Notes: generated by a model not told the origin, from the sequence alone. Positions 6,269 to 42,163 are shown, numbered from the stretch's first letter. The stretch: 64,000 bases of DNA from an uncultured bacterium (GCA_964645915.1 CAZYDH010000001.1:76573-140572), one strand, 5' to 3'. A program made the numbers and translations.

Positions 6269-9200
6269 TTACTTCAAGAACATCATTTTCTTAGTTGCGG
6301 TATAATCACCGGCTTCAATCCGATAGAAGTAGATACCACTACTTACCGGTTGACCGAAGTTATTTACACCGTTCCATTGAACTGTATGCGATCCAGGAGT
6401 TAATCCCTGTCTATCAATCTTTGCTACAGTATTTCCAAGCAGGTTGTAGATAGTCAATGTGACATCGGATACCTGAGGAATGTCGAATGAGATCGACGTA
6501 GTAGGATTGAACGGGTTCGGATAGTTCTGACGTAATGCAAATGAAGTCGGTAAAGGCTTCAGAGGATCTGTAGAAGCAGTTATCCAATCAAGAGCTTGTT
6601 TCAATGAACCTTCCTCTTTAGCTCCCCACCATACGTAAGGATCGTCATTTAATGACAGAGGATCAAATCCAAGGAATAAGGTTTTGTTACCATTTGTCCA
6701 TGTCTTATGGACACCAACAGCATTACCACCGGAGCTGAAACATACTGTTCCGTCTGCAGTGGGTACAAGTCCGTCAAGCCAGTTTGCGAATTCAATTTCA
6801 TAACCCGGATCATAAAGAACCGTGTCTCCACCTTCTGCTGCAAACAGTGCACCGGAGATCAGATCTCCTTCAACAGTTGCAATCGGTGAGATTGCAGCAT
6901 CGTTGATATCATTCAATGTTGAAGCAACACCAAGATTGTGGAAGAATGAACCTTCGGCAAAGTCTACATCGCCCCAGCTCATATTATAGATACCGAATGT
7001 TTCATCACCGGCAAGTACGTATTGTTTATCTCCTTGTGCTAACCAATCAGACAAGGCACCATCATAATAGGTATGAAGCGCACCGTAGAACGGATAATCG
7101 CTTGTAGTTGTGATTTCAAATACGGTGTTATAGAAACTAAGCAGTTCAGCCGTAGGAAGACCATTGACATTACTTTCCCAGAAATCCGGCCATACAAATA
7201 GGTTTCCTGTTACGTAATCATCGTAGAAATAGTATAATCCCGGATAGCTGCCGGAGTCCATTTCATTGTTTAATACAAACAGCACGTCTGAGGATGGCGC
7301 ATAAACGAAGTAACTATAATCAGCAGTTACAAATGAGCCACCGGCATCGGTTGCAACTAAATAATAAACAACTGTTGTTCCGCCTTCTTGTCCCGGGATG
7401 GAACCAGTAAAGGATCCATCTCCGTTGTCGGTCAGGGCTACGGTTGTAGCTTCACCATCAATGGTGTAAATCAGATCAACGGCGAACACATCCCCTTCGC
7501 GGTCTTCAGCGGTTGCAACAACCGTTATATCCTCCTGTGTGAAAATTGGTCCAGAAGGTCCGTCATGGCCAGTTATGACCGGGACTGATTCAACTTCAAA
7601 CCACTGCATTGTATTGTCAAGGAATCCGAAAAGAACGGCATCATCATCAATACCTTCGAGGTGCCATGGTACGAAAGCCATTCTATAAAAGCCGTCATAC
7701 ATTACACCACCAAAGTCAACAAAGTCTTCTTCTTCTGTACTAAACACATTGAAGATAGATTCAGCGTCGTCATCACCAATGATTTCATCAGCCCAGTTGG
7801 AGGCCTCAGGGCAAGTAACTTCGAACGGATCTAAGAACTCGCCGGTGAGGAGATTTCCTTCAACCCCAGTATAAAGAGTGTCTGTGGATCCAAAGTCATC
7901 GCCGTAGTAGTTTGCATCACTCCAGAAGTCAGAGGTGTGAAGGTAGTTGGCTAAGAACGGATATGCACCCGCATCTACAGTAGACCAACCTTCAGCTCCG
8001 CCTGTGATACCATAGATATAGTCAGCAGAGGAGAAAAGCAAATCCCCACCATTGTCTAAGAAAGCCATAACATCAGCTTCAAGCGTTCCACCAACACCAA
8101 GCAATCCTTCACTGTTCAGACCTTGAATAATCACAAGGTCATCGTATTTATTCAATTCACATGCTGTTAATGCTCCACCGGATTGTGTGTTCCAGAAGTC
8201 TACTGAATAACCAAGCTCATAAAGAGCTTCGGCGATCCGAGCAGCATAAGTAGCATCCAATGCATTGGGACCATCGTCCAGAACGAGGACATCAGCGCCG
8301 GCTGTGTATTCACGTACTGTGAAAGATTTGGGAGCTAATGACAGATCTGTTGTGTGTTGTACACCGCCTGCAGGATTCTCATCACCATTATCAACTGCTT
8401 TCCAGTAGTATGAAACAGTGGTTCCAACAGGAACAGATGGAATAGTTCCGGTAAAGATATCGTCAACGCCGCTACCTACTAATTCAGTTTCTACAACGCC
8501 GTCACCAATGTCATATCCGAAGATAACGCTGGTTAATGCACCGGTAAAGTCTGCAGTACCCACATCAACGATGTTTGCAGTAGCATAGTAAGGACCACCG
8601 TCACAGGATGCATATACATCTGGAAGATCTAATACATCTGTAATAAATGGTGGCGGGTCTCCGTAATAGTCAACTTTTGCATCGACAGCAAAGTTTAATC
8701 TTGGAACCCAGCAGCCTTCATCACAATAGGAAGCACCACCATTATAGAATTTGAATCCATGATTGTAAGTGGTTCCACTTCCACCGTCACCGGCATAGTA
8801 GTACAAGTCTGGACCATCACCACCAAAATCACCGATTACTTGGATAGCAAAGTCATTTGCTCCAACATCAGCCGGTGTTGGGAAAGTGAAATCAAGCAAC
8901 GTTGAAACGTCGGAAGAGGTCAATGGGAAAGTATAGGAAGCTAAGACGTTCCCCATAAAGTCCCCAGGTGACTCGTTGTAGTATGAAAAGTCATACACAC
9001 CGTTTGCATCCACACCCGCGGAAGTTACATCTAATACTTCACGGACGACGAGTGTTACGTCGGTACCAACCAATTCTGACTCAGAATGGAAATAGAGCTG
9101 TACACCCTCTACAGTACACTCTGTGTCTGGTCTGTACCAAACTGCAGCACTGTCACCTGTATTAAAGATAAATCCACCAAAGCCAGTGGAACCCGCATCA

Positions 9201-9487
9201 TATGCGATCACTGACGGGAAGCGAGAATCCGCTACCGGGGGTTGATCTCTTAACACGACAGTTTCAGGATCTTGTGTTTTTCTTGCCAGGCGAGGTCCTG
9301 CTGTTAATGCACGTTTTACAATCATATCATTGTTTTGTAAAACAGGTCCTGCAGGCAAGGCTTTTTCTGTAATTTGAGTTGATTGTCCTTTAGGAAGTTC
9401 GCCGGTGCTCTTTAAGATCGCATCGTAAGCAAACGTCACAGAAAAGACCATTACAAGAAAAAGCAATATTTTAACTGTTTTTTTCAT
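6269..9487 (-). CDS. large secreted protein with T9SS C-terminal sorting domain
   Basis: 1072-aa ORF with a signal peptide (MKKTVKILLFLVMVFSVTFA). The last ~88 aa (about nt 6269-6535), LRQNYPNPFNPTTSISFDIP...GIYFYRIEAGDYTATKKMMFLK, match the Por-secretion-tail type sorting domain. Two Ig-like modules share F(T)G(T/S)IP...GTTV.YY..A.D.G. There is a central flavodoxin/ThuA-like stretch (ADVLVLDDGP...YDDLVIIQG...FLDNGGDLLFSS). Confidence 0.8.
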   Translation of the reverse strand: MKKTVKILLFLVMVFSVTFAYDAILKSTGELPKGQSTQITEKALPAGPVLQNNDMIVKRALTAGPRLARKTQDPETVVLRDQPPVADSRFPSVIAYDAGSTGFGGFIFNTGDSAAVWYRPDTECTVEGVQLYFHSESELVGTDVTLVVREVLDVTSAGVDANGVYDFSYYNESPGDFMGNVLASYTFPLTSSDVSTLLDFTFPTPADVGANDFAIQVIGDFGGDGPDLYYYAGDGGSGTTYNHGFKFYNGGASYCDEGCWVPRLNFAVDAKVDYYGDPPPFITDVLDLPDVYASCDGGPYYATANIVDVGTADFTGALTSVIFGYDIGDGVVETELVGSGVDDIFTGTIPSVPVGTTVSYYWKAVDNGDENPAGGVQHTTDLSLAPKSFTVREYTAGADVLVLDDGPNALDATYAARIAEALYELGYSVDFWNTQSGGALTACELNKYDDLVIIQGLNSEGLLGVGGTLEADVMAFLDNGGDLLFSSADYIYGITGGAEGWSTVDAGAYPFLANYLHTSDFWSDANYYGDDFGSTDTLYTGVEGNLLTGEFLDPFEVTCPEASNWADEIIGDDDAESIFNVFSTEEEDFVDFGGVMYDGFYRMAFVPWHLEGIDDDAVLFGFLDNTMQWFEVESVPVITGHDGPSGPIFTQEDITVVATAEDREGDVFAVDLIYTIDGEATTVALTDNGDGSFTGSIPGQEGGTTVVYYLVATDAGGSFVTADYSYFVYAPSSDVLFVLNNEMDSGSYPGLYYFYDDYVTGNLFVWPDFWESNVNGLPTAELLSFYNTVFEITTTSDYPFYGALHTYYDGALSDWLAQGDKQYVLAGDETFGIYNMSWGDVDFAEGSFFHNLGVASTLNDINDAAISPIATVEGDLISGALFAAEGGDTVLYDPGYEIEFANWLDGLVPTADGTVCFSSGGNAVGVHKTWTNGNKTLFLGFDPLSLNDDPYVWWGAKEEGSLKQALDWITASTDPLKPLPTSFALRQNYPNPFNPTTSISFDIPQVSDVTLTIYNLLGNTVAKIDRQGLTPGSHTVQWNGVNNFGQPVSSGIYFYRIEAGDYTATKKMMFLK

Positions 9488-9683
9488 GTTGTTTTGTTCT
9501 CCTGTTTGTTAATTAAGTTTTCTCTACCGATTATCGTTCAATGATTACGAAGAGTCGGCATGGAAAATTATCAAAAATATAATGATGAAAATTCTCTGAG
9601 AAAACACATCACTATTGGAGTTTAAAAAACAATAGACACATATTCCAACACTATTTTGATATAAAAACTTTACACAATTATTT

Positions 9684-9807
9684 GTTGCTTTTTCGGTAAA
9701 AAACACTACAAATTAAACATCGTTTTGAGACAAAATCGATTAACAGTTGCATTTTCAGTAAAAAGCAGTACAAATTCTATGTGGGTTTAGATCAAAATCG
9801 ATATTTG
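9684..9807. repeat. 62-bp imperfect tandem repeat (2 units) in a divergent promoter region
   Basis: Unit A is 9684-9745 and unit B is 9746-9807. A 31-nt box (gttgc.tttc.gtaaaaa.ca.tacaaatt) matches at 27/31 positions. A 10-nt box, caaaatcgat, is identical and sits at the same 62-nt offset. The spacer between the boxes is divergent. Confidence 0.8.
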
Positions 9808-9850
9808 ATAAGCGCTTAAAACCAAATCATACACCAATAAAGAAAATTTA

Positions 9851-12800
9851 ATGGAAATACTTATGAGAAAAATAAAACCATTTATTTTTATAATGATATT
9901 TGCAACGATGTTATTTGCAGGAAATACAGGGAAGATTGCCGGAAGAATAACAGACGCAACAACAGGCGAGCCCCTTATCGGAGCAAACATCATTGTAACG
10001 GGAACATCTCTTGGGTCTGCAACAGATCTGGATGGTTATTATACAATATTATTTGTCCCTCCGGGTCAATACACCCTTAATGTAAATAGTATGGGATATG
10101 CAAAATCCGTGATCACAGATGTTGTTGTGACGGTTGATTTAACAACAACAATCAATGTAGAAATGACAACCGAAGTGCTTGAGGGAGAAATCGTCACAGT
10201 AACAGCAAAGAAACCTTTGATCGAAACGGATTTGGTTTCGTCGCGGAGAAGCATGACATCAGAAATGATTGAAGAGATTCCTGTTGATGATATTGAAGAT
10301 ATATTAAATCTAACAGCAGGGATTGTAGACGGTCATGCTAGGGGTGGACGAGATGGTGAGATTCTATTTTTAATTAATGGTGTCCCGGCCGTTGATCCTA
10401 TTGATAATGAATTCAGTGCAGAAGTTCCAACTTTGGGTATTGCAGAAACCAACATCATTACATCCGGTATTTCCGTTGAGTACAGCAATGCCCTCTCAGG
10501 TGTTGTCAATATGGTTACTCAAGAAGGTAGTTCAAAGTTAAAAGGAACATTCCGTATGAAAACGGATGATAACTCCATGGTTAATTTTGGTTTTCCGGGG
10601 TTAAATAAAGAAACAGTATATGAAGGGGCTTTGGGTGGTCCATTGCTAAACCTCCCTGTTCGTTGGTTTGTTGCAGGTGAAGTCACAAACACTCAGGGAA
10701 GATATGGTGTGGCCGAACGAGAAGCAGGTGCTGTTACAACAAGCTTAACTTGGCGTCCTTTCCCTAAATCAAAATTTAAACTCGCGGTAAATAATAATTA
10801 TTCAAAAAACAATCAATATAGCTATCGATATAGTCGTGTCAGTTATGAAAATGAAAATTCTGATAATGATGATAGACTGGACAGAGTTGTTACTATCCAA
10901 GCAAAAGATATTTTTGATCCGACAACATATGGTACAGATGGTTTATTGTATGGATTGAATATGGAAGATGTCATTTCAATCGCTGGATTAAGTGCAGACG
11001 ATATTCCAAAAAGAAATGTAATGATTGAAGTTGATAAAGATGGTACAGGAGGAATTATTGCAGGAGATGGGGACTTTAGAGAAGAAGATCTTAATGGGAA
11101 TTCTCAATGGGATATTATTGATTTTAATCGGTCAGGCGCTACTACCGACTCCAGCTTTATTGATATGAATGATGATGGAGTATATCAATGGGGCGTTGAT
11201 GTGCCAACAAGCACAAATGCAACTGAGGTTGATGGGCATGCAGTTATTTTAGCAAATAGAAACTTAACCGATGACCCGCTTGCTTCTGGCTTCAATGATT
11301 CATTTAGCATGTTAGATCACTTGCTGCGATTCAAAGATAACAGTTCACATATTAGTTTGAGCTTGAACCAACAATTTGCTAAAAACTCTTTCTTGATGGT
11401 TAGTTTAAGCAGATTTAAAACATATTACCATTATGACACTGAAGAATCTTCTAGTATCCCTTCATATATTGATTTTCTAGATGAAGCAGGGGTTGAACAG
11501 AAATATATTAATGATTATAAGGATAATCTGTTTACAGACTGGAACAACAATGACTTTCTGGATATTTCCGAAGATGCATTCCCCGATGATTATTCAAAAT
11601 GGTTAGCTTGGGAAGATATTCCGATCCAAAACACGCAAGACAGAGATAAATTTTATACATATGGCAATGGAACTACATTTTCACGTAATAGATGGAACGA
11701 AGATGAAAAAGTAATTTGGAATTTTAAAACCACATTAACGAGCCAAGCTACAAAACATCATTTACTGAGAGCTGGTTTTGAAATGAACCTATATGATGTG
11801 TTTGATCACGATATTGATATGCCGTCAGGTGGAAATATTTATGGTCAAAATATTGGTTCAAGAAATGATTGGGGTCGATTTGGTGAATCCTATTCAGACT
11901 GGGGTCTAGACGGCGTTGAAGGGACGAACGATGACTATGAAGGTAATAATACATGGGATCATCTTGATTATGGGGAAGACGGTGTGCTTGCAATCGATGG
12001 AAATGGTGACGGAGATTATGATGATGATTTTATCGATCTTCCACCGGATGTCGGAGAAGGAGACGGGAAAGTAAACTACAATGAATTACATGAGCCGTTT
12101 GAAGATATATATGATGATGACACGTGGGGCAAGAAACAACAAAAACTAGATCCTATATGGTGGGGAATGTTTGTTGAAGATAAAATGGAATTCAAATCTT
12201 TGGTTGTTGTTAGCGGTATTCGTGTAGATTATTTTAATCCAAAGTTTAGTAATTATCCTTCAGATATTAATGACCCGGTCATTGATCAGACCACAGGAGG
12301 AGAAGTAAAAAATCCAACATCAGTTGATGGCAAATTTTATTGGAGTCCGAGAATTGGTATTTCATACCCAATCACGAATAGAGATGCCTTCTATTTCAAC
12401 TATGGACAGACCTTCCAAATCCCACAATTTCAGTTTATGTATAGAAACATTAATTGGGATTTCTCAGGAGCATTCCCGATCGTTGGCAATCCAGACATAT
12501 TGCCCGAGACAACCACAAGCTATGAGCTTGGGTTGAGACATCAGATCGGACAATTTTGGAGATTAGAAGTCAAAGGGTTCTATAAAGACATTCAAGGACT
12601 GGTTGACACAAAACAAATATGGATAAAAGCTAACCAATACTATACTCGTCATATAAATGGTGATTATGGTAATGTAAAAGGATTAGAAATTGATCTATTT
12701 AGACAATTCACTAAGTACTTTGGCGGGAATATTAACTATACTTATTCCATTGCAAAAGGAAAGAGCTCTTCTGCAATGCAGAACTATAGTTTTACATGGG

Positions 12801-13399
12801 CAAGTCAAATCATTCCTGGTCATGAGAATTATTTAGATTGGGATCAAAGACATACTATAAATGCCACGCTAAAGACAACCATACCATATATTGATGTTGA
12901 TATGAATACAACAGTTAACTATGGAAGTGGATTGCCTTATTCTCCACCAAATAAATCTTTAGAGGTTAAAATTAATACAGAAAGATTGCCGCATACATTC
13001 AATATGGATTTATATGCTAGCAAAAGCTTCAACATCCCTGGTTTTGGTGGCGATACAAAAGCATCTGTGTTCCTCTGGATAGACAATTTGTTCAATAATA
13101 AAAATATTACAGCTGTTTATGATTCCGAATGGTATCACTTGTATACAAACTATCAAAAAGCCTATGAGGACAAAGACAAGGCTGTTTTCCCATCTGAAGA
13201 TGATAATAATGGTATTGATGACGATGGAGATGGATATATTGATGAAACATTTAAAGATGAATATATGTGGGTAATGGATATAGATGGTGATGGTAAAGTT
13301 GATTACAATAAAAAACATCCATCGGGCGGAGTGTATGGTATCCCGGGATATCTTTCACAGGATAGAACAGTTAAGTTTGGTATTTCAGTAAAATTTTAA
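9851..13399 (+). CDS. TonB-dependent receptor-like outer-membrane protein with N-terminal carboxypeptidase-regulatory-like domain
   Basis: 1182 aa. The signal peptide fits better from the alternative ATG at 9863 (MRKIKPFIFIMIFATMLFAG). CarboxypepD_reg-like domain (GKIAGRITDATTGEPLIGANIIV...DGYYTILFVPPGQYTLNV), plug-like region (RGGRDGEILFLINGVP) and a barrel ending in a terminal aromatic (VKFGISVKF). Three Asp-rich DxDxDG insert segments. Confidence 0.85.
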   Translation: MEILMRKIKPFIFIMIFATMLFAGNTGKIAGRITDATTGEPLIGANIIVTGTSLGSATDLDGYYTILFVPPGQYTLNVNSMGYAKSVITDVVVTVDLTTTINVEMTTEVLEGEIVTVTAKKPLIETDLVSSRRSMTSEMIEEIPVDDIEDILNLTAGIVDGHARGGRDGEILFLINGVPAVDPIDNEFSAEVPTLGIAETNIITSGISVEYSNALSGVVNMVTQEGSSKLKGTFRMKTDDNSMVNFGFPGLNKETVYEGALGGPLLNLPVRWFVAGEVTNTQGRYGVAEREAGAVTTSLTWRPFPKSKFKLAVNNNYSKNNQYSYRYSRVSYENENSDNDDRLDRVVTIQAKDIFDPTTYGTDGLLYGLNMEDVISIAGLSADDIPKRNVMIEVDKDGTGGIIAGDGDFREEDLNGNSQWDIIDFNRSGATTDSSFIDMNDDGVYQWGVDVPTSTNATEVDGHAVILANRNLTDDPLASGFNDSFSMLDHLLRFKDNSSHISLSLNQQFAKNSFLMVSLSRFKTYYHYDTEESSSIPSYIDFLDEAGVEQKYINDYKDNLFTDWNNNDFLDISEDAFPDDYSKWLAWEDIPIQNTQDRDKFYTYGNGTTFSRNRWNEDEKVIWNFKTTLTSQATKHHLLRAGFEMNLYDVFDHDIDMPSGGNIYGQNIGSRNDWGRFGESYSDWGLDGVEGTNDDYEGNNTWDHLDYGEDGVLAIDGNGDGDYDDDFIDLPPDVGEGDGKVNYNELHEPFEDIYDDDTWGKKQQKLDPIWWGMFVEDKMEFKSLVVVSGIRVDYFNPKFSNYPSDINDPVIDQTTGGEVKNPTSVDGKFYWSPRIGISYPITNRDAFYFNYGQTFQIPQFQFMYRNINWDFSGAFPIVGNPDILPETTTSYELGLRHQIGQFWRLEVKGFYKDIQGLVDTKQIWIKANQYYTRHINGDYGNVKGLEIDLFRQFTKYFGGNINYTYSIAKGKSSSAMQNYSFTWASQIIPGHENYLDWDQRHTINATLKTTIPYIDVDMNTTVNYGSGLPYSPPNKSLEVKINTERLPHTFNMDLYASKSFNIPGFGGDTKASVFLWIDNLFNNKNITAVYDSEWYHLYTNYQKAYEDKDKAVFPSEDDNNGIDDDGDGYIDETFKDEYMWVMDIDGDGKVDYNKKHPSGGVYGIPGYLSQDRTVKFGISVKF

Positions 13400-13415
13400 T
13401 ACATAGAAGACAATC

Positions 13416-15752
13416 ATGAATAAATACAAAAAAATAACAAGTATCATCATAGTGCTTTCACTAAGTATGGTTGTTGGGAAAAATATAAATACAATTAATT
13501 ATTCCCCAACTTCTATGAGAAGTGCGGCTGTCGATGAATATAGAGTTCACAACGTTGGAAAAGTGTGGACAGCAACCAGCAACTTTGGAAACTACGGCGA
13601 TCCGAATGTTCCCGAAGGACTTCCCTCTATGGAATGGCCGGGAGGTACCGGAACACACCATTTGTGGGAAGGGCGACTGTGGATCTCTGCATTAGTTGAT
13701 GGAGAAAAACGCTGTAGTCACGCAGACTACGGACAGTACGAGTTTCACCCAACCGAGGGAAGCACCTTTGACCTTCCGGCATATCCCGGAAAATCAGTTG
13801 AAGACAGCTATGCAACATTTGATGATTTTGTCGGTCCGCACACGACAACATCCCTTGGCATTAAAATTAAACAAAGAGGATTAACATGGAGTACACCCGA
13901 TTATGACGATTTTGTCATTTATGAACTTGATGTTATTAAAGAACGTAGTGGTGATGATTATAGTGGCGATGAATTAAATGAACTCTATGTAAGTTGGGTA
14001 TATGATTGTGATGTAGGTACCGGAAACGACCCAACAAACCCACATATTGACGATGCTGTTGATTTTGATGGATGGGATGGAAATAATCCGGAAAGTCAGA
14101 TTACTTATAAAATAGACCTTGTCGAAAATGGTGATCTTGATGCGGATGGAGTTATTGAAGGTTATAGTGATGCCGGAGTACCGTACGGATGGAAGAATGT
14201 AGGAAGTCCATCATCATCGCAACCGGATTTTGAACCGACATTAGCATATCCAGACGGATTCTATGATGAATATACTGTTCTGTTATCAGATGATGCTAAT
14301 GCACCGGTTATTGTATGGCAATTAGATGCAACAAATCCCGACTATGATGCGGTTGCTGGGCAGGTTGCCGTGATAAGCGGAGACACATTAAAAGGGTATA
14401 TCGTTCCGAGAAATATGTCTTATATGTATGATGCAGACGATCCAACTACTCCTGAAGATGACACAAATGAAGGAGGTAATGTCCCCGGGTTTATTGGAGG
14501 ACGCTTGCTCTACACAGATATGTGGAAAGCAGGTCCTTACTTAGACACAGAGGATGACACACTCATGCGAGTCTTTAGTCATCAATGGTGGAATTGGGAA
14601 TCCGACCCCGCAACTGATAGAGATAAATTTGATTATGCAACCGGAACGCATATTGAAAGTCGGGGAAATAAATTTATGCCCCACCCATTTAATGTGGGTG
14701 CGCCGACATTTGATTATCGGTTTATGTTAACGACCGGTCCATTTAATAATTTTGAATTAGGTGATACAATAAGCTTTGTTTATGCTGCGATTGTTGGATC
14801 AGGCATTAGAGACCTACGAGTAAATGCTGATAATGCTTTAAAAGCTTATTTTGCCGGAAGTACTTCGAGTCCATATGATCCACTTAGCCCGGATGAAGAC
14901 GTTCATTATTTGTTGCCGATTCCTCCTCCAGTTCCTGTGTTAGCATACAGTCCGTTGGATCAAGGTGTCATGATGTCTTGGGACAATTCTTCAGAATTAG
15001 AAGTTGATCCTCTAGTTGGGGCAGCAGATTTTGAAGGGTATAGAATTTATCGATCAAAATTTGTTCCGGGAAACTGGGAATTGCTTGGTGCCTTTGATAA
15101 TGTAGACGGTCCTGTTTATATGCTTGATTTTGAGACAGGTGATACCTTATTTAATAAACAACAATATGACTTACCTGAATTGACTCATAGTTTTTATGAT
15201 ACATCTTCGGTATTTCAATCTTACGATGTAGATGGCAATATAGTGGATATGATTACTGGGATTGATAAACCAATCAACAATCTTCCTTATTATTATGTTG
15301 TGACAGCTTATGACAATCCAGCAGCACATGGGAAACCGGAATTTCCACCCATTGAATCATCAAAATCCAATTATAAAACCAATGCAACAACCGGAGCACC
15401 TGAGCCCGTTTATCCTAGAAAGTTTTATAACGAAGGAGAAGAATGGAACGGAAAATATGTTTCAGTTTATCCAAATCCATATAAAGGAGCATCTCTACTA
15501 GAAGCTCAATATGAAAACAAAATAAACTTTACACACTTACCCCCTGCATGTAAGATTTCAATCTTCAGCATAACAGGAGATTTGATAAAAGAGATATATC
15601 ACAATGATAGCTCATCAGACGATGCATGGGATTTAACTTCAAAAGCAGATTTGGATGTTGTGAGTGGTATGTATGTCTATGTGGTTGAAACAACCATTAA
15701 ATCATTCCCATCTAAACAAATTGGTAAATTCGTTATTCTGAGGGGTAACTAA
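13416..15752 (+). CDS. secreted protein of unknown function with T9SS-type C-terminal domain
   Basis: 778-aa ORF with a signal peptide (ITSIIIVLSLSMVVG), 16 nt downstream of the receptor gene. The C-terminus VYPNPYKGAS...ISIFSITGDLIKEIY...GMYVYVVET...KFVILRGN resembles a T9SS/FlgD-Ig-like sorting domain. Contains a DLDADGVIEG calcium-loop-like motif. Confidence 0.7.
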   Translation: MNKYKKITSIIIVLSLSMVVGKNINTINYSPTSMRSAAVDEYRVHNVGKVWTATSNFGNYGDPNVPEGLPSMEWPGGTGTHHLWEGRLWISALVDGEKRCSHADYGQYEFHPTEGSTFDLPAYPGKSVEDSYATFDDFVGPHTTTSLGIKIKQRGLTWSTPDYDDFVIYELDVIKERSGDDYSGDELNELYVSWVYDCDVGTGNDPTNPHIDDAVDFDGWDGNNPESQITYKIDLVENGDLDADGVIEGYSDAGVPYGWKNVGSPSSSQPDFEPTLAYPDGFYDEYTVLLSDDANAPVIVWQLDATNPDYDAVAGQVAVISGDTLKGYIVPRNMSYMYDADDPTTPEDDTNEGGNVPGFIGGRLLYTDMWKAGPYLDTEDDTLMRVFSHQWWNWESDPATDRDKFDYATGTHIESRGNKFMPHPFNVGAPTFDYRFMLTTGPFNNFELGDTISFVYAAIVGSGIRDLRVNADNALKAYFAGSTSSPYDPLSPDEDVHYLLPIPPPVPVLAYSPLDQGVMMSWDNSSELEVDPLVGAADFEGYRIYRSKFVPGNWELLGAFDNVDGPVYMLDFETGDTLFNKQQYDLPELTHSFYDTSSVFQSYDVDGNIVDMITGIDKPINNLPYYYVVTAYDNPAAHGKPEFPPIESSKSNYKTNATTGAPEPVYPRKFYNEGEEWNGKYVSVYPNPYKGASLLEAQYENKINFTHLPPACKISIFSITGDLIKEIYHNDSSSDDAWDLTSKADLDVVSGMYVYVVETTIKSFPSKQIGKFVILRGN

Positions 15753-16822
15753 TGATTAAGAAAATAAATACTCTATGGAAAACCACGTGTTTTCTACTAA
15801 TAATTACAGGCCTTGCTCTTGGCAGTGATTCAGACTCTGAAGGTTCCAAAACCGCAAAAGCTGGTTTTGTTGGAGCACAGTTTTTAAAACTGGATGTGGG
15901 CGCAAGAGGATTTTCAATGGGTGCATCAATGGATCCGTTGTTGAGCGATGCTTCTTCAGTGTTTTGGAATCCGGCCGGCCTTGCATTAGCGCCTAATCAA
16001 TATGTTTTTGCTTCAAAAACAAAATGGTTTGCCGATGTTAGTCATATGGCTGCTGCCTATTCGATAAAGGTCCCAAAAATCAGGGGAACGGTTGCAGTCA
16101 GTTTAGTCTCATTGTCATCAGGTGATATGCCTGTTACGACCATCGAAGATCAAGACGGAAGTATCAGTGGAGAAAAATTCAGCACAGGAAGCTATTCTGT
16201 TGGTCTTGGATATGGTGTTAACATCTCGGATAAATTTAGTTTTGGTACACATTTTAAATTCATCCATGAAGATTTTGCTCAGGGTCTATCAGATGTAGAG
16301 GATGGATATGGAGCAGGAAGTACTTGGGCTTTTGATGTGGGAACACTTTATGACACCAATTACAAAACGTTAAAATTGGGAATGTCTATCAGAAACTTTG
16401 GACCGGACTTACAATTGGATGGAAGTTTTATAGATTATAATAATGGTGAGCCAATTTTAGATGAAGACGGAGAACCTGAAGAGAATACGTTCAGACCATA
16501 TGGTTTGCCATTGACTTTCCGTTTTGGAGTAGCAGCAACTCCTCTTGATAATCAAGTACATAAGTTAGCTGTTTCGGTAGTTGCAGAGCATCCCGCCGAT
16601 AATCATGAAAGAATTAATATGGGAACGGAGTACACATTTTCTAAGTTTTTTGTATGTCGGGCAGGATATGTGTTTAATGACGATTCAAGAGGAGGATCTT
16701 TGGGGATTGGTATCAATAATTTCCCGATCGCCAATTTTGGAAGAATTAATATTGATATAGGTATGACAGATTACTCCTTGTTTGATCCTACATATATTGC
16801 ATCATTTGGAATTCAAATTTAA
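15752..16822 (+). CDS. PorV/PorQ-family outer-membrane beta-barrel
   Basis: 356 aa with a signal peptide. The N-terminal motif GAQFLKLDVGARGFSMGASMDPLLSDASSVFWNPAGLA is typical of PorV/PorQ (UPF0164-like) barrels. There are alternating beta-strand patterns throughout. Its start overlaps the upstream stop by 1 nt (TAATG). Confidence 0.7.
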   Translation: MIKKINTLWKTTCFLLIITGLALGSDSDSEGSKTAKAGFVGAQFLKLDVGARGFSMGASMDPLLSDASSVFWNPAGLALAPNQYVFASKTKWFADVSHMAAAYSIKVPKIRGTVAVSLVSLSSGDMPVTTIEDQDGSISGEKFSTGSYSVGLGYGVNISDKFSFGTHFKFIHEDFAQGLSDVEDGYGAGSTWAFDVGTLYDTNYKTLKLGMSIRNFGPDLQLDGSFIDYNNGEPILDEDGEPEENTFRPYGLPLTFRFGVAATPLDNQVHKLAVSVVAEHPADNHERINMGTEYTFSKFFVCRAGYVFNDDSRGGSLGIGINNFPIANFGRINIDIGMTDYSLFDPTYIASFGIQI

Positions 16823-16837
16823 CATCAAGAGAATAAT

Positions 16838-19800
16838 ATGAAACATCTCGTAAAAATAATCATAACTATTGCTCTGATAAATTCACACATTTTTTCTGCG
16901 GACGTAACTCAAGCAGAAGTTGGAGACAACTATATGTTTTGGGTCCTCGGACAGGGGTTTTTCTCAGGGTATTACCAATCAAGTGCTACATTGAATGCTG
17001 AAGGCGAAAACGCAGTTGTCTTCACCGAAGACGCCTTGGTGCGCGATCTAGCATTTTTACCATACAATGATTCCGTGTTGGTTGCTACGACGAACTCCGG
17101 TGTGTTTATTTCAACAGACAGAGGAGATACATGGGTAGCTTCACATGGAACAACGGGGACAAGCGCACTTCCGGAACAACCTGCGAACAACTTAACAAAC
17201 ATCGAGGAAATTCCGTATCAACACAAAGAGGCGGTAAACTCAATCGCATTTGAAGATGAGGAAACCTGGTGGGTTGGGTTGAAAGGAACAGACGATACTA
17301 AAACCATTTATCGTACAACAAATGCCGGTGAAACGTGGAAGAAAAAATCTACTGGAGCTCCAACATTTGATGGGCATAACCCCACCGTTAACAAAATGTA
17401 TTTTGCGCCGGGAATTGATAAACCATATGCTGCAACAGTTGGTGGTTTGTTTTACAAATCCGGATCACGTTTTAAAAACATTGGACACGCATTACCAGAT
17501 CCCTCTACAACGGATTGGCCATCAATCCCGACCTATGATGTAATGGCACAAGGTGAAAAACTATACTTTGCAACCGATTATGGAATGTTTTTTGGCTCAG
17601 TTGAGTTGTCGGCAATTGATGCTCTTCCAATTGGAAATGGAACGGTTGATATTAACTCAAGTGGTTTAACGTATGTCGTTGATGAGGTTCTTGATTCAAC
17701 GCAGACAGATCAATTTACTTGGGATTGGGCTACTGGAGATACGGTCTGGGTTTATGATTATTTTACCAGACTGGATACAGTGTCTTGGCATCTCGGGCTT
17801 GATGTTGAAGCACTAGACCACGCAGGACAATATGTAAATGTTGAGGATACCACAACTAGCACAAAATGGAAAAGTAAAATCAATCCTAGTGGTGTGGTTG
17901 AGTTGATGAATGACTATATTTATCAAGAAGGTTCTTTAGACCCGGATCTCTTGGATTATGCTGATTACGATGCGTCCAATCTTATTGTACATCTTGTGGG
18001 AACTGAACCAATCTATGATTTTGATATTGATTCAGCAGGAAATATATATTATTCTACAGGAACTGAAGTAAAAGTCTTAGGTGGAGAATCCATTGAAGGT
18101 TTAAGTGGGACCATCAACGATATTGAACTTTCGGTAAATGAAGATGCACTATTTACAGCAACGTCAAACGGACTTCAAAAACACGTATTCGGAGAGTCCG
18201 GTTGGACCGAAATAACCCCCAAGATTGGCATGCTCAATAAAAATGATGAAATATCATTTGTGGTTACTTCAATTGTACAATTTAATCAAGACACTCTATT
18301 TGTTAGCTGTGGAAACAATCAATTTGACGACCCAAGGACAGTCACGTATCGTACAGGTGGTGTATTAGCCTCTTATGATGGAGGCAGTACATGGGCTCCA
18401 AAAAATATCGGTTTGACCCATCGTTCATCAACCCCTGATGACGTACAAAGTATTTTAAGAGCAAATGTAGTTCCATTGCCAGTTGACTCAACAACCGTTG
18501 CTGACGAAAATGTTGGAATTTATGATTACGTAACTTCATATTATGGCCAGACACCAAATATTGACAATAATGAAAAAGTGAATATTTTAATCGCCGATAT
18601 GGATGATAATGCCTATAACGCAACGAGCGATCTGATCATTCAGGGATATTTTAGTCCTCCAGACCAAGACCCCACAGAACTTAACAGCAATGCATTGGAT
18701 TTAATCTATCTGGATAGTGATCCTCAGGATCCGGGAGAAGCTCAGGAAGGCATTGCCAGAGCACTTGCAAGGTTGATTTGTCATAATTATGATGCAGATG
18801 AAGAAGAGTGGGTGTTGACAGGATTGGAGCATTTTGCAGCCTATATTACCGGTCATAAATCCATGCCTGACGACTCGTTTGTTTTAAGCAATAACAACAG
18901 CTTGACAAAATACGGTGACTATGGAAATAACACGGAATACGATCAACTATTCCTGATGATGGAATATTTATACGAAAAATATTTCAATGAATCCCCGTTT
19001 GAGGAAAACTCCGGAAAATTGATGTCAGTAATTGTACAGGAGGAAGAAAATAGTGTTGACGGTATCGAGAACGCACTTGGTACTATAAATGCCGGAAAAT
19101 CATTCTCAGAAGTATATTCCGATTGGGCGTTAGCGATTCATTTTGATAACCCTGACAACTCACTCTATGATGGTTTATATGGATTTGAAAATGTAGATGT
19201 AAGCATTGCACCCTCTTCTTATCCGTGGGGTGTTACTTCAGGGTATTCACCCTATTCTGAAACGATTAAAAATTGGTCTGTTAAATATACTCAAACAGAA
19301 AAATGGGTTGATAATAATGGATCATGGACAAACAAAGCATTAGACTTTAATCAGGAAACACTTGTTGTAAATGCCTCTGATAATGGTGATTTTGATATGT
19401 TCCTTATTAAACAGCACCATAAAACCGAAAAAGATTCAACCGCGACAGTAACACTATTGGATCTTAACCTGGATCAAAATAGGATTGTTTACTCTGATTG
19501 GGACGATTTTGGTTCCACAGTGGAATCGGTCACCGACAGCTCTGAAATTAATGAGTATCAGTATTTTGCTCTGATTGTTGTATCAAAAGAAACGGGTAGC
19601 GATGCTGGTGGTTCGTTCGTTGTAGATGACGAAACAGACCCACCGGTGACTTTTGACTTGCATATTAATCAAAATTCAGACCTTGTAAATTACTTGGACA
19701 TCTATGCGTTCAGCGATGTGGCGATCTATGGTGACGGTGCTTCCAGTACAAATAGTGAACTTGAAGGACCTCTTGTAGAAATCAACAATGGAGAAGGTAT

Positions 19801-20659
19801 TGTTACGTCCTTTATTGTTCCACAAGTTTACGATGCCGGAAATGGGTTTGTTTATAGCGCTCCATTTGATCTTAGATCGTTTCTTCCAACAACCATATCT
19901 GAATATTGGTTTATCGGACATGCAGAAAGCATTGGAGGAAATGCAGCAGCTTCGGATAGTGTTTTTGTAGTCGCTATTAAAAACGACAATCAATCTGCTC
20001 GTGAATTTGTTAGCACACACACACAACTGACAATGACGATTCCCGCACAAACCATTGTCGAAAACGAACTACTGACAGTGATTAAAACAGACCAAGATAT
20101 GGCCAACCAAACATTTATGCCGGTTAGCGATGCATTTGCTGTTGGGAATGTAAATGTTGAATTAAGAAGACCAATTACGGTCGGTTTTGATCTGTCGTCA
20201 ATGAATCTTTCCATCGATGATAAACGCAAATTAGATATTTGTTATGAGTTGGATGGCGAACCAATTGCTCTCAACACACAAATTGATTTAATAAATGATA
20301 TTGTTACAGCACAAATAGACAAATGCGGTAACATCCAATTGGTGATCAACTCTAATAAACCTATAGTTGAAGAGGTCCCCAATAGCTATAAGCTATTTCA
20401 AAACCATCCTAATCCGTTTAACCCAAGAACCATCATTCAATATGATATTCCGGAAGCAACAAATGTATCATTAAGTGTTTATGATCTTCTTGGTAGAAAC
20501 ATAAAAACACTGATTAATGAACATCAAAAAGCCGGTCATTATTCAGTTCAATGGGCAGGCCTTGATTACGCAGGGAATAAAGTTTCCTCAGGTATATATT
20601 TCTATAGACTTGAAACAGAACAATTTTCAAAAACATATAAAATGATAATGGTGAAATAA
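16838..20659 (+). CDS. very large secreted protein with Asp-box (BNR) repeats and T9SS C-terminal sorting domain
   Basis: 1273 aa with a signal peptide. Asp-boxes are STDRGDTW (~17111), TTNAGETW (~17315) and SYDGGSTW (~18371). The sorting domain (~20387-20659) is LFQNHPNPFNPRTIIQYDIP...GIYFYRLETEQFSKTYKMIMVK, clearly homologous to the tail of the 6269-9487 gene. Confidence 0.8.
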   Translation: MKHLVKIIITIALINSHIFSADVTQAEVGDNYMFWVLGQGFFSGYYQSSATLNAEGENAVVFTEDALVRDLAFLPYNDSVLVATTNSGVFISTDRGDTWVASHGTTGTSALPEQPANNLTNIEEIPYQHKEAVNSIAFEDEETWWVGLKGTDDTKTIYRTTNAGETWKKKSTGAPTFDGHNPTVNKMYFAPGIDKPYAATVGGLFYKSGSRFKNIGHALPDPSTTDWPSIPTYDVMAQGEKLYFATDYGMFFGSVELSAIDALPIGNGTVDINSSGLTYVVDEVLDSTQTDQFTWDWATGDTVWVYDYFTRLDTVSWHLGLDVEALDHAGQYVNVEDTTTSTKWKSKINPSGVVELMNDYIYQEGSLDPDLLDYADYDASNLIVHLVGTEPIYDFDIDSAGNIYYSTGTEVKVLGGESIEGLSGTINDIELSVNEDALFTATSNGLQKHVFGESGWTEITPKIGMLNKNDEISFVVTSIVQFNQDTLFVSCGNNQFDDPRTVTYRTGGVLASYDGGSTWAPKNIGLTHRSSTPDDVQSILRANVVPLPVDSTTVADENVGIYDYVTSYYGQTPNIDNNEKVNILIADMDDNAYNATSDLIIQGYFSPPDQDPTELNSNALDLIYLDSDPQDPGEAQEGIARALARLICHNYDADEEEWVLTGLEHFAAYITGHKSMPDDSFVLSNNNSLTKYGDYGNNTEYDQLFLMMEYLYEKYFNESPFEENSGKLMSVIVQEEENSVDGIENALGTINAGKSFSEVYSDWALAIHFDNPDNSLYDGLYGFENVDVSIAPSSYPWGVTSGYSPYSETIKNWSVKYTQTEKWVDNNGSWTNKALDFNQETLVVNASDNGDFDMFLIKQHHKTEKDSTATVTLLDLNLDQNRIVYSDWDDFGSTVESVTDSSEINEYQYFALIVVSKETGSDAGGSFVVDDETDPPVTFDLHINQNSDLVNYLDIYAFSDVAIYGDGASSTNSELEGPLVEINNGEGIVTSFIVPQVYDAGNGFVYSAPFDLRSFLPTTISEYWFIGHAESIGGNAAASDSVFVVAIKNDNQSAREFVSTHTQLTMTIPAQTIVENELLTVIKTDQDMANQTFMPVSDAFAVGNVNVELRRPITVGFDLSSMNLSIDDKRKLDICYELDGEPIALNTQIDLINDIVTAQIDKCGNIQLVINSNKPIVEEVPNSYKLFQNHPNPFNPRTIIQYDIPEATNVSLSVYDLLGRNIKTLINEHQKAGHYSVQWAGLDYAGNKVSSGIYFYRLETEQFSKTYKMIMVK

Positions 20660-22008
20660 TGAATAAATACAAAACAATATTTCAACCTGTTATTTTCGGA
20701 TTACTTGGACTTCTTGTCCTGTCAAGCTGCCGAAAAGATTTAAGCTCAGACATACCGGAAGATTACAATACGGTAGAATCGCTGATTGTAGATGGGTGGG
20801 CGTATTACGCCGATGGAGATTATTCTAGTGCTCTTGATGCTTTTCAACTAACATCAGAACGGAATGCTCAAACCATTGAAGCTTATATCGGCAAAGGTTG
20901 GTCTTATTTACGTCTTGGACACATACAACACTCCAGGGTAGAATTTAGTGTCGTTCTAAATTTAGCAAATGAAAATAACGATGATGTTTCCATGGCGGAT
21001 GCTTATGCTGGTTTGTTTTTGATTGCGTTAGAAAATAGGTTTTCTGCTCAAACGGATCCAGAACAAGAGCCAACAGAAGAAGATTTGATTGATTTGAACA
21101 ACAAGATCATTGAAATGGGTGAAAAGGTATTCGTTTATAATAGCGACTATTCAACCAACCATGATCCGGATTTATCGAGTGATGAAGTCCATATAGCCCT
21201 TGCACAAACGTATTATAATGTTAGTCGCTATCAAGAAGCATTGGAACACGCTCAACCTGTCTTTGGGAATATACTTGATCAGATTGATGCTGTTGAAACA
21301 GTAGCAATAGAATTGAATCCATGGATAGGGTCTGATGGAGAGCTCCAATTATTTAACTTTAGCGAGACGGAAGAATTAACTTCTGTTAATATACCTACCG
21401 GACATACAATTAGCGTAGATGACATCCAGGATCTTAATAACAGCAATGCAACAGTAAAAAATGAACTTTTTGATTACTTATTGAATCATAATGTTATAGA
21501 GTTGAATTCAGACTACCTATTTACACCCCATGAAGAAAGAGTTTATTCTGTTACTGTTTCTCATGCTCAACCGGGATCAGCATCACAAGACTATTCCATA
21601 TTGAGCTTAGAGAAACAAGGTGTATTTCAAGTTGAATCTGTTCAAAAAATAACACTTGAAGACGTTGTAACATGGTATTATGTCGATGCAAATAATGATA
21701 CTACGCTAGCTGATGGGACATATGAAGACGATGGAACAGGAGATTTCTTCTCCGTTATTACAGAAGAAGAAATATTTACTGATGTTGATGGTAGTATATG
21801 GACTCCAGTTGATCCAGATACAGATACTCCAGTAGATACAGTGGGCGTTATTCCTTACAATTATAATATGATCAATCTTTCATCGGGCGCTGAAGGTGAC
21901 GAGTATTTAGTTACATATAAATTTGGAAGTTATTTAGTAGATTGTACACAAACAATTAACTTCTTAGGATATTTAGAATTATTAAACTCATATTTATCAC
22001 TCGATTAA
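20659..22008 (+). CDS. lipoprotein with TPR-like N-terminal half
   Basis: 449 aa with a lipobox-like signal (LLGLLVLSSC). TPR-like helices (YYADGDYSSALDAFQ...EAYIGKGWSYLRLG...YYNVSRYQEALEHAQ) and an acidic beta-rich C-terminal half. Its start overlaps the upstream stop by 1 nt (TAATG). Confidence 0.6.
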   Translation: MNKYKTIFQPVIFGLLGLLVLSSCRKDLSSDIPEDYNTVESLIVDGWAYYADGDYSSALDAFQLTSERNAQTIEAYIGKGWSYLRLGHIQHSRVEFSVVLNLANENNDDVSMADAYAGLFLIALENRFSAQTDPEQEPTEEDLIDLNNKIIEMGEKVFVYNSDYSTNHDPDLSSDEVHIALAQTYYNVSRYQEALEHAQPVFGNILDQIDAVETVAIELNPWIGSDGELQLFNFSETEELTSVNIPTGHTISVDDIQDLNNSNATVKNELFDYLLNHNVIELNSDYLFTPHEERVYSVTVSHAQPGSASQDYSILSLEKQGVFQVESVQKITLEDVVTWYYVDANNDTTLADGTYEDDGTGDFFSVITEEEIFTDVDGSIWTPVDPDTDTPVDTVGVIPYNYNMINLSSGAEGDEYLVTYKFGSYLVDCTQTINFLGYLELLNSYLSLD

Positions 22009-22035: not shown

Positions 22036-22066
22036 TAAAAAGGGGTCTTGCGAGACCCCTTTTTTA
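22036..22066. terminator. bidirectional intrinsic terminator
   Basis: An A-run, then the perfect hairpin GGGGTCT-TGCG-AGACCCC (22042-22059), then a T-run (22060-22065). It lies between convergent gene ends. Confidence 0.85.
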
Positions 22067-26093: not shown

Positions 26094-26887
26094 GGTTGAA
26101 TCTCCAATGAGTTATGAAGCCATTTGAAACCAAAATAAACAAAGATAATAGCAAAAACAAGTAAAATAGGGTGGACATGTCCCTGCAAAGTATAAATTGA
26201 ATCAAGGCCTTCAATATTTACCAGTAAAATAGCAAATCCATTATTTAAACCGTGTAAAATAAAACTGGAAATAATTGATCCGGTTTTCCAGGCAAGATAT
26301 CCCAACATTATACCCAGAATATAGATTTGAATAATCCAAAAAGGGTTCATGTGAATAAAAGCAAAGAACAAGCTGGTTATTAAAACAGCTCGTGTAATAT
26401 CTTTCCAATGTTCTTCTAAAAACTGTTGTAAGAATCCTCGGAAGAGGAGTTCTTCACCAAGCGGAGCAATAATAACAATTGAAGAAATAATCAGAAATGC
26501 GCTTCCAAAGGATTCCAGTTTCAATAATTTTCCGACGTCTTCAAACACATCCGGTATTGTAAAAAAGGTATTCATAAGCCTATCCATTTCATCTGCGAGG
26601 AGAATTACTCCAATTGAAAAGATGATAACAGAAAGTGCAGTGTGGAGAGAAATTTTATGAATACGAAATCGGTATAAAAGTCGTTCTTTTCGATGTAATA
26701 ACAGAATTAATACAGGAAGAGCGATCAATCCTTGTCCGATGAACAGGGACAGATGAGTATAAAGAATGTTTTGATCAGGATGGTATTTCAGACCAAAACC
26801 AAGAACAGCACCGCCCACCGCAAAAGCAAATAGCACGGATGCAAATACAATTCCCAGTACAAGAGAAACTGTAAGGGTCCGGTTCAT
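26090..26887 (-). CDS. CPBP (CAAX) family intramembrane metalloprotease
   Basis: Multi-TM protein with the motifs EELLFRGFLQ, FAFIHMN and HGLNN. Confidence 0.85.
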   Translation of the reverse strand: MNRTLTVSLVLGIVFASVLFAFAVGGAVLGFGLKYHPDQNILYTHLSLFIGQGLIALPVLILLLHRKERLLYRFRIHKISLHTALSVIIFSIGVILLADEMDRLMNTFFTIPDVFEDVGKLLKLESFGSAFLIISSIVIIAPLGEELLFRGFLQQFLEEHWKDITRAVLITSLFFAFIHMNPFWIIQIYILGIMLGYLAWKTGSIISSFILHGLNNGFAILLVNIEGLDSIYTLQGHVHPILLVFAIIFVYFGFKWLHNSLEIQP

Positions 26888-31514: not shown

Positions 31515-31534
31515 TTGTTTTCCCTCTTATTTAT

Positions 31535-38289: not shown

Positions 38290-38317
38290 CACTATGCAGT
38301 TGTAAAAAGGAAAACAG

Positions 38318-40898: not shown

Positions 40899-41070
40899 AA
40901 AAGAATAATATGTTTTAAATTCATCGTTATTGAAGTCTGAAAACAATTCGTTTTCAATTTATCTATGAAATAAATAGAGCCATTAATAGGATCACACGAA
41001 ACCAAACCCCCTATTTTATTTAGGTAAGTTTAATCATGAACATGTGGAGGATTAAATAAAAATTTCAACC

Positions 41071-42162: not shown

Positions 42163-42163
42163 T

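Follow-up and report, generated by a model that had tools for sequence, protein, structure and literature searches.

A recurrent gene cassette of a TonB-dependent transporter, a protein with a PorZ-like C-terminal domain and a PorV-family barrel: a putative outer-membrane uptake module of uncultured FCB bacteria

Introduction

What is the function of an operon in which the gene of a TonB-dependent transporter (TBDT) is joined to genes for type IX secretion system (T9SS) cargo and for a PorV-like barrel, and in which no SusD gene occurs? The question is raised by a 64,000-nucleotide (nt) stretch of DNA from an uncultured bacterium (GCA_964645915.1, CAZYDH010000001.1:76573-140572), referred to as a whole as “the window”, which carries five same-strand genes, g1 to g5, next to a divergent gene, g0. 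The TBDT is encoded by g1, a secreted partner protein with a C-terminal domain (CTD) similar to that of PorZ by g2, and a barrel of the PorV/PorQ family by g3; g4 and g0 encode large secreted proteins with canonical T9SS tails, and g5 encodes a lipoprotein with tetratricopeptide repeats (TPR). The two outer-membrane innovations that mark the Fibrobacteres-Chlorobi-Bacteroidetes (FCB) superphylum, namely the T9SS and complexes of the SusC/SusD type, have so far been investigated apart from each other.

Here, we have compared this locus with its relatives in genomes and metagenomes, and we propose that it is a conserved outer-membrane uptake module, with a core that consists of g1 and of the T9SS-exported g2, the latter being tethered by g3 as the surface partner of g1; we assign to this reading a probability of roughly 55%. 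The first-pass annotation of this DNA had suggested a self-contained module for substrate capture and import: a conserved and self-contained outer-membrane module that combines a TBDT, T9SS proteins and a PorV-family barrel without SusD is indeed found, whereas import is what its architecture would suggest.

Results and discussion

Conservation of the six-gene module and of the three-gene cassette

For our comparison of the gene neighbourhoods, 185,579 species genomes were scanned with g2, and 190 of them were found to carry a g2 relative. All 190 are metagenome-assembled genomes (MAGs), and their taxon labels, which are unreliable for MAGs, include Neomarinimicrobiota/Fidelibacterota, Calditrichota, KSB1, LCP-89 and Zixibacteria. 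In the three neighbourhoods that were examined first, at 41-55% identity, the genes have the same order and are joined by a sixth gene with a T9SS tail. The best 80 of the 190 genome loci underlie our synteny counts, each denominator being the number of loci with enough flanking sequence: g1 is located upstream of g2 in 72/72 loci and g3 downstream of g2 in 78/78, while g5 is present in 58/59, the fourth position (“slot 4”) is taken in 59/59 loci by a protein whose homology with g4 extends from the M30-like domain to the tail, and a protein of the g0 family is located downstream of g5, in “slot 6”, in 44 of 52. As judged from this gene order, the module comprises six conserved genes, g0 being the sixth. 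Only in the window and in a relative that is 88% identical (L005) is g0 found upstream and inverted; the description of g0 as a third, divergently transcribed cargo with a homologous tail holds for the tail and the orientation, but has to be revised in that g0 is a conserved member relocated by inversion. The gene order, which might have been a chance juxtaposition, is thus conserved across phyla. The flanking genes, considered as hints to the substrate, were set aside, because they differ in every locus.

The first three genes of the module recur outside it. When the profile of the g2 family was searched exhaustively, 9,834 cluster representatives with many architectures were obtained, 749 of them at E <= 1e-30, and seven relatives were examined. 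In five of these, the g2-type CTD is attached to bodies of 701-1146 amino acids (aa) that are unrelated and have no Pfam domain at all; a PorV-family barrel (323-332 aa) directly follows in 5/5, and a TBDT with a CarboxypepD_reg domain directly precedes in 4/5, the fifth being cut by the end of the contig. The other two relatives have a g2-like N-terminal domain and canonical tails, and neither has a TBDT or a barrel as its neighbour. A metagenome scan with an alignment of four sequences that covers the CTD only gave at least 547 confirmed stretches, and 80 loci were fetched for neighbourhood counts; their partner proteins are 636-1280 aa long and mostly not orthologues of g2. The next open reading frame encodes a PorV-family protein in 71/72 of these loci, and a TBDT precedes the CTD protein in 43/45. 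The functional core is the recurrent triad of TBDT, CTD protein and PorV-family barrel, i.e. g1-g2-g3.

Minimal cassettes, in which TBDT, partner and barrel occur without canonical-tail cargo, are found in loci L086 and L091. In L091 (7862-12230), genes for two GWxTD-domain proteins and a TolC-like OEP gene come after the barrel, with no slot 4-6 proteins. Since these GWxTD/OEP genes stand in place of slots 4-6, L091 shows that the accessory genes downstream of the cassette are interchangeable. In three loci (L024, L064 and L072), a second, paralogous triad is located directly upstream of the six-gene module, consisting of a TBDT, a protein of ~1120 aa with partial homology to g2, and a barrel of the PorV family. 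Directly after slot 6, a further TBDT of the CarboxypepD_reg type begins in L003/L004 (from 22250). The cassettes, therefore, form arrays.

A sister cassette in L090 (363-18772) is followed by T9SS-tailed Peptidase_M6 and Peptidase_S8 proteins. In front of it, a Peptidase_C25 protein of 1160 aa is encoded, which also has a T9SS tail and scores 110 bits with the PorU sortase model, below its cutoff. This PorU-like protein is the only machinery-like T9SS gene seen beside any cassette. In L002, a TonB_C gene adjoins the module.

The C-terminal domain of g2

The g2 protein consists of a signal peptide, a beta-sandwich of ~480 aa that is rich in Asp and Trp, a fibronectin type III (FN3) domain and the CTD, at aa ~680-778. 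The family is conserved over its full length, and no Pfam domain is found in the body of g2. In the AlphaFold2 (AF2) model (pLDDT 82, pTM 0.80), the beta-sandwich contains many invariant Asp, Trp and Gly residues, and the C-terminal part of the model matches FN3 tandems and PorZ (5m11) in a Foldseek search. That the body binds a ligand is our conjecture.

The tail of g2 scores 24.5 bits with TIGR04183 (cutoff 23) and 20.8 bits with the Pfam model Por_Secre_tail, PF18962 (cutoff 27), and it also matches the NCBIfam model of the PorZ tail. The T9SS-type tail that the first-pass annotation had assigned to g2 is, thus, accepted by TIGR04183 but falls below the Pfam cutoff, and it is of a PorZ-like class. 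The alignment of the tails separates two classes of CTD: the g2-type class is characterised by VVPNPY, an insertion of 10-17 residues and the pattern F.NLP..C.IRI[FY]T..GDL ... WD ... VSG.YIY.V ... GKF.[IV].R, and the canonical type by QN[YH]PNPFNP ... IYN.LGQ ... SSGIYFYRL ... KKM.LLK. A hidden Markov model of the g2-type class gives 75.5 bits for g2 versus 22.0 for g4 and 17.6 for g0. On these sequence criteria, the CTD of g2 is of a class distinct from the type-A tails of g4 and g0. Among curated models, the best match of the CTD is PorZ in g2 and in 3/4 of the other cassette partners that were scanned (E 2e-8 to 2e-6); two of these three tails also match the PorU tail weakly, and the fourth partner (L086) has only a generic type-A match below the cutoff. 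With the generic tail model, the other cassette partners likewise stay under the cutoff or give no match.

The mean p-distances over 57 loci are lowest for the CTD of g2 (0.43), followed by the body of g2 (0.53), g1 (0.56), g3 (0.60), the CTD of g4 (0.60) and the body of g4 (0.77). Of all segments of the module, the CTD of g2 is thus conserved best; this would be unexpected for a signal that is discarded, and we infer from it that the CTD may be retained.

The g3 barrel and the g1 transporter

The first-pass annotation had called the 356-aa protein g3 PorV/PorQ-like, and the assignment is sustained at the level of the family: g3 scores 176.5 bits with the PorV_fam model NF033709 (cutoff 90), and its family profile matches the solved PorV structure 6h3i_F with E 2e-28. 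The equivalog models are not passed, with 74.7 bits for PorV (NF033710, cutoff 250), 68.6 for PorQ (NF033711, cutoff 220) and 59 for PorV2 (NF052325, cutoff 325). Five other cassette barrels behave in the same way, passing PorV_fam in 5/5 cases and failing every equivalog, and in 5/5 the PorQ score is higher than the PorV score; with 323-356 aa, the cassette barrels are also PorQ-sized. The pair of PorZ and its anchor PorQ is a better analogy for g2 and g3 than a private shuttle for two cargo proteins would be.

The architecture of g1 had been annotated as CarboxypepD_reg, plug and barrel, and all three parts are recovered. A CarboxypepD_reg-like N-terminal extension (NTE) at aa 29-117 (PF13620, 62.8 bits) is followed by a TonB-box-like motif, VTVTA or ExVxVxAERP, by the plug at aa ~127-270 and by a barrel of the 22-strand type (PF00593, TonB_dep_Rec_b-barrel, 83.9 bits; cutoff 27). 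The plug scores 17.5 bits with the Pfam Plug model, below the cutoff of 23.9, and is recognised through the family profile, which matches the plugs of Cir and FepA (E 4e-18 to 1e-8, with 4e-18 for Cir), the barrel of PhuR (E 6e-14) and NTE domains of the SusC type. With the SusC/RagA model TIGR04056 (cutoff 368.25), g1 reaches 58.1 bits over only the first 119 model positions, which correspond to the NTE, and solved SusC barrels are absent among the matches of the g1 family profile. Its plug, barrel and TonB-box-like motif identify g1 as a genuine TBDT by sequence, and not as a SusC.

Long acidic loop insertions occur in the g1 barrel, with DxDxDG motifs at aa 438, 716, 1123 and 1143; g2 has one such motif, at aa 240. 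The motifs of g1 are of the calcium-binding type and are located in insertions predicted to be extracellular, and the family consensus contains EDxNGNGxLD repeats similar to those of thrombospondin type 3.

Co-variation of the g2 segments with g1 and g3

In order to explore how the segments of g2 and g4 vary with the two barrels, partial Mantel tests have been conducted on 46 non-redundant loci. The body of g2 co-varies with g1 when g3 is held constant (r = 0.76, p 3e-4) and shows no correlation with g3 when g1 is held constant (r = -0.02, not significant), while the CTD of g2 co-varies with g3 given g1 (r = 0.49, p 3e-4) and shows none with g1 given g3 (r = 0.06, not significant). The corresponding values are 0.33 (g1 given g3) and 0.22 (g3 given g1) for the body of g4, and -0.08 and 0.24 for its CTD. 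The segments of g2 show a double dissociation, and those of g4 show none. Such a dissociation, which is correlative only, would be expected if the body of g2 is in contact with the transporter and its CTD with the barrel.

Proposed mechanism and alternative explanations

In the mechanism that we propose, g1 would act as a TBDT with an NTE in the style of SusC, and g2 would be exported by Sec and the T9SS, keeping its PorZ-like CTD, which would be bound to the extracellular loops of g3. The latter would first be the cognate carrier of g2 at the T9SS translocon, and afterwards the anchor of g2 in the membrane. The body of the tethered g2, placed on or beside g1, would be the substrate-capturing partner, in the role that SusD or BtuG lipoproteins have in Bacteroidota; g4 and g0 would leave by the general PorV route of type-A cargo, to be displayed or released as accessory ligand-binding proteins, and g5 would be an assembly or scaffold lipoprotein. 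The anchoring of g2 by g3 is proposed by analogy, because the CTDs of PorU and PorZ are known to be retained, bound non-covalently to PorV and PorQ; in a review, cognate PorV-like barrels have been proposed to shield CTDs from cleavage (PMC10202324). The physical contacts of g2 with g3 and with g1 are, like the direction of transport, matters of inference, import being favoured because the TBDT architecture of g1 is intact. The substrates are possibly peptides or glycopeptides; the inactivated protease domain of g4 and the active peptidases of the sister cassette in L090 hint at peptides, and we give them little weight.

Several observations count against this mechanism. The N-terminal domain of g2 is without a convincing structural homologue, its Foldseek matches to the supersandwich of phosphorylases and lyases having a TM-score relative to the query (TMq) of ~0.2; g3 itself, unlike the other cassette barrels, scores marginally higher with the PorV than with the PorQ model; the T9SS core genes SprA, GldKLMN and PorU were not found in the 64-kb window, to which the search for them was confined; and mirror-tree correlations may stem from shared rate constraints instead of binding. 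In addition, g3 may serve more than one cargo, because the CTD of g4 co-varies weakly with g3.

This last point bears on an alternative that was part of the first-pass annotation, where g3 had been cast as a private PorV shuttle between two cargo genes. If g3 carried all cargo of the operon (g2, g4 and g0), with ordinary type-A processing and no lasting complex of g2 and g3, then its membership in the PorV family and its position between two CTD-bearing genes would be accounted for, as would the weak but significant correlation of g3 with the CTD of g4 (r = 0.24), PorV being the known carrier of type-A cargo (PMC10994853). The barrel is indeed a dedicated one, but it is probably not a shuttle for two cargo proteins, because the g2-type CTD class almost always precedes such a barrel (71/72) and co-varies with it; moreover, canonical-tail relatives lack the barrel, the minimal cassettes L086 and L091 have no canonical-tail cargo for it to carry, and the CTD of g2 is of a separate class that resembles the retained CTD of PorZ. 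We consider a shuttle for all cargo unlikely.

The module might alternatively serve export or the assembly of a surface layer or an adhesive structure, and not the import of nutrients. Oar of Myxococcus is a TBDT-like protein needed for protein secretion, and the domain order of g1, with PF13620, plug and long barrel, is Oar-like; the partners are all large surface proteins without an identifiable catalytic domain, and DxDxDG loops of the calcium-binding type are common in adhesins and surface arrays. A second exporter would be unnecessary, however, for cargo that already has T9SS signals, and the plug, the TonB-box-like motif and the barrel are conserved as in importers; the TonB_C gene next to the module in L002, and the tandem cassettes with different bodies, which look like substrate-specific uptake loci, argue in the same direction, so that we regard export or surface assembly as quite improbable. 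Still less probable is a role in envelope biogenesis, be it as the counterpart of the T9SS attachment complex (PorU/V/Q/Z) in this lineage or as some other machine: g2 is PorZ-sized, has a PorZ-like CTD and adjoins a PorQ-like barrel, the propeller repeats of g4 are weakly PorZ-like, and a PorU-like gene is located beside the cassette of L090, but hardly any locus lacks the TBDT (present in 72/72 and 43/45), the bodies of the partners are diverse in size (636-1280 aa) and share no Pfam domains, a single genome may have paralogous triads next to each other (L024, L064, L072), the module has no sortase-type Cys/His domain, and the model of g2 is a beta-sandwich and not a double propeller. Chance juxtaposition of unrelated outer-membrane genes has in its favour only that genes for TBDTs and for T9SS-tailed proteins are abundant in FCB genomes generally. 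It is refuted by the synteny, since phyla whose proteins are 40-55% identical share the order while the flanks are unrelated, and the genes are translationally coupled. Tethering of T9SS-exported g2 by g3, next to g1, is, thus, the reading that we prefer.

Comparison with known systems

The cassette resembles several known systems in part. PorZ-PorQ and PorU-PorV of Porphyromonas gingivalis have in common with it a PorZ-like CTD on an exported surface protein and its pairing with a PorV/PorQ-family barrel of PorQ-like size. The differences are that the genes are here adjacent, translationally coupled and always located after a TBDT, that several cassettes per genome are possible, that the bodies vary widely and are unrelated to the double propeller of PorZ, that the barrels do not reach the cutoffs of the equivalog models for PorQ and PorV, and that the hosts belong to FCB phyla other than Bacteroidota. 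Cargo with a type-B CTD, such as SprB of Flavobacterium johnsoniae, likewise has a special CTD class genetically linked to a dedicated carrier or anchor barrel, here SprF: the adjacent cognate PorP/SprF carriers of type-B cargo stay on as anchors (PMC12618676), and CTDs bind the extracellular loops of the carrier inside SprA (PMC10994853). In contrast, the barrel of the cassette is of the PorV/PorQ family, its CTD is a divergent type-A or PorZ-like one, its linkage with a TBDT is without counterpart, and cargo of the SprB type are gliding adhesins.

With SusC/SusD (RagA/RagB) and BtuB-BtuG, the cassette shares a TBDT of the CarboxypepD_reg type directly upstream of a presumed surface partner, downstream accessory genes and modular, paralogous loci; the partner, however, is neither a lipoprotein nor SusD-like and would be exported by the T9SS, g3 is an obligatory third membrane component, and g1 fails the SusC model. 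The FadL-type barrel BamG of the BAM complex of Bacteroidota, which holds the surface protein BamH beside BamA (PMC12578637, PMC12611786), provides a parallel of another kind, where the extracellular loops of a FadL/PorV-related 14-strand barrel hold an extracellular protein beside a larger barrel; BamH, unlike g2, is a lipoprotein, BamG does not belong to the PorV family, BamA takes the place of the TBDT as partner barrel, and the function is the biogenesis of outer-membrane proteins. By these analogies, the cassette is SusC/SusD-like in its logic and PorZ-PorQ-like in its anchoring, and is a member of neither group, as the SusC, SusD, PorV and PorQ models all fail.

No published description of a cassette of TBDT, CTD protein and PorV-family barrel was found in the open-access full-text literature, and the cassette, widespread in metagenomes of uncultured FCB phyla, is apparently undescribed. 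A generalisation in which we place slightly less than even confidence is that it represents a large class of TonB-dependent uptake systems in non-Bacteroidota FCB phyla, where the extracellular component that binds the substrate or serves as a lid would not be a lipoprotein, but a T9SS-secreted, CTD-retaining partner plugged into a dedicated PorQ-like barrel whose gene comes next, the three components together replacing SusC/SusD in function. If this is true, the cassette would link SusC/SusD-type uptake and the T9SS physically, nutrient uptake would depend on type IX secretion, and anchoring by a retained CTD and a PorV-like barrel, as known for PorZ-PorQ and PorU-PorV, would be a general, modular means of display. 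It would also explain the TonB transporters without SusD in abundant, uncultured lineages such as Fidelibacterota/SAR406, Calditrichota, KSB1 and Zixibacteria of ocean and sediment, and would give a function to thousands of proteins without Pfam domains (the 9,834 cluster representatives; the at least 547 metagenomic stretches with the CTD class), the g2-type CTD being a sequence signature that predicts a partner barrel and a transporter.

Accessory proteins of the module

The g4 protein begins with a variable BNR/Asp-box propeller at aa ~68-250, for which many loci carry a replacement, and continues with a conserved M30-like domain at aa ~564-700, further beta domains and a canonical type-A CTD at aa ~1183-1273. 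Its tail is above the cutoffs of both TIGR04183 (39.2 bits) and PF18962 (28.2 bits), it has a BNR match, and its family profile matches the M30 protease lugdulysin (7bb9, E 9e-26) and the BNR protein 3b7f (E 4.5e-14). The Asp-box repeats and the canonical tail that had been annotated in g4 are, thus, present, but the tail motif is QNHPNPFNP and not YPNPFNP; the NYPNPFNP version is found in g0. We have considered g4 as an active protease and rejected this: the homology with M30 is real, and the HExxH motif is absent in 23/23 aligned g4 homologues, where the aligned positions read, for example, ARALAR, while a downstream DEEEW..GL block is kept. Because HExxH is replaced in all homologues, the M30-like domain is, as far as its sequence tells, an inactivated, catalytically dead protease fold, which plausibly serves as a binding domain. 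The known relatives are, accordingly, the metalloproteases of the M30 (hyicolysin/lugdulysin) type, and NCBIfam has a category of T9SS-dependent inactivated M6-like proteases; g4 differs from M30 in that it is without HExxH and in that the domain is set in a multidomain surface protein of 1200-1750 aa.

The tail of g0 is also above the cutoffs (TIGR04183, 40.8 bits; Por_Secre_tail, 32 bits), and its body has no enzymatic match, an Ig-like domain being the only one found. A PorU-like sortase role of g0 was rejected, as the PorU model matches the tail only and neither a Cys nor a His is invariant within the family.

The annotation of g5 as a TPR lipoprotein agrees with a TPR_2 match of 34 bits, a TPR domain at aa ~40-210 and the lipobox LVLSSC, whose Cys24 is invariant in 34 homologues. 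The C-terminal half of g5 is beta-rich and poorly modelled (AF2 pLDDT 56). We have also considered g5 as a cryptic SusD; its family profile matches only TPR proteins in the Protein Data Bank and its Foldseek matches are generic TPR folds, a weak negative given the low confidence of the model. Pfam and NCBIfam scans found no match of the SusD/RagB family in the operon or in the whole window, in agreement with the first-pass annotation.

Organisation of the locus and its surroundings

The features of the window are listed in Table 1. The five same-strand open reading frames and their spacing had been annotated exactly: the junctions from g1 to g5 are, in order, 16 nt, a TAATG overlap, 15 nt and a second TAATG overlap, so that g2-g3 and g4-g5 are translationally coupled. 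The terminator, given previously as 22042-22065, is confirmed as a hairpin at a slightly different position; it has the sequence AAAAAGGGGTCTTGCGAGACCCCTTTTTT, a GC-rich 12-bp hairpin in which 5/12 pairs are G-C, with A/T runs on both flanks.

Table 1. Features of the window, with coordinates counted from its first nucleotide
Feature	Position	Strand	Description
g0	6269-9487	-	1072 aa; secreted, canonical type-A CTD; slot 6 member, inverted here
Divergent promoter region g0/g1	9488-9850		putative
Palindromic block	~9590-9605		AATTCTCTGAGAAAA; possible operator
62-nt direct repeat, first copy	9677-9738		putative promoter
62-nt direct repeat, second copy	9739-9800		putative promoter
g1	9851-13399	+	1182 aa; TBDT
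g2	13416-15752	+	778 aa; partner protein with PorZ-like CTD
PorZ-like CTD of g2	~15453-15749
g3	15752-16822	+	356 aa; PorV/PorQ-family barrel, 14-strand type
g4	16838-20659	+	1273 aa; slot 4, propeller, inactivated M30-like domain and type-A CTD
M30-like domain of g4	~18527-18934
Tail of g4 with QNHPNPFNP	20384-20656
g5	20659-22008	+	449 aa; TPR lipoprotein
Intrinsic terminator hairpin	22037-22064		bidirectional; closes the g1-g5 operon and a convergent M23 peptidase gene
CPBP-family gene	26090-26887		intramembrane protease
MotA/MotB-like genes	29295-32353		adjoin a rhombosortase-like gene
Putative exopolysaccharide locus	37300-43285		FemAB-family, HfsF-like and GT4 genes

Upstream of g1, a tandem direct repeat of 62 nt occurs, with 73% identity between its copies, each of which carries TTGC-N19-TACAAATT, a sigma70-like -35/-10 pair. 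The intergenic region of L005 has one copy only of the repeat core, and the putative promoter upstream of g1 appears to be duplicated in the window relative to L005. Both the palindromic block AATTCTCTGAGAAAA and AACACATATTCCAAC, located near it, are kept in L005, within a divergent intergenic region that is otherwise diverged, and are possible operators for a regulator of g0 and of g1-g5. The 16 nt shared by the starts of g2 and g5 had been pointed out in the first-pass annotation: the identity is correct (20/21), but the stretch encodes MNKYK and is not kept in relatives, and we have rejected it as a regulatory element, attributing it to the composition of an AT-rich genome. Rfam gave 0 matches in the window at the gathering threshold.

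The nearest relatives of g2 are found in MAGs labelled Marinimicrobia, Neomarinimicrobiota or Fidelibacterota, and the source bacterium, therefore, most likely belongs to Fidelibacterota (Marinimicrobia), as far as such labels allow. Outside the module, the window holds no further PorV-family gene, TBDT of the g1 type or T9SS-tail protein; the remainder is ordinary chromosome, with CopA, MgtE, ProS, enolase, Rho, MurI, PckA and others. An intramembrane protease of the CPBP family is encoded at 26090-26887. Further downstream, a MotA/PomA-like gene and two MotB/OmpA-like genes adjoin a gene similar to those of rhombosortases, although the window contains no flagellar genes. Lastly, an exopolysaccharide locus is suggested by a cluster that encodes a member of the FemAB family, a polysaccharide biosynthesis protein similar to HfsF, and GT4 glycosyltransferases, with weak matches of PEP-CTERM/XrtA-associated models throughout.

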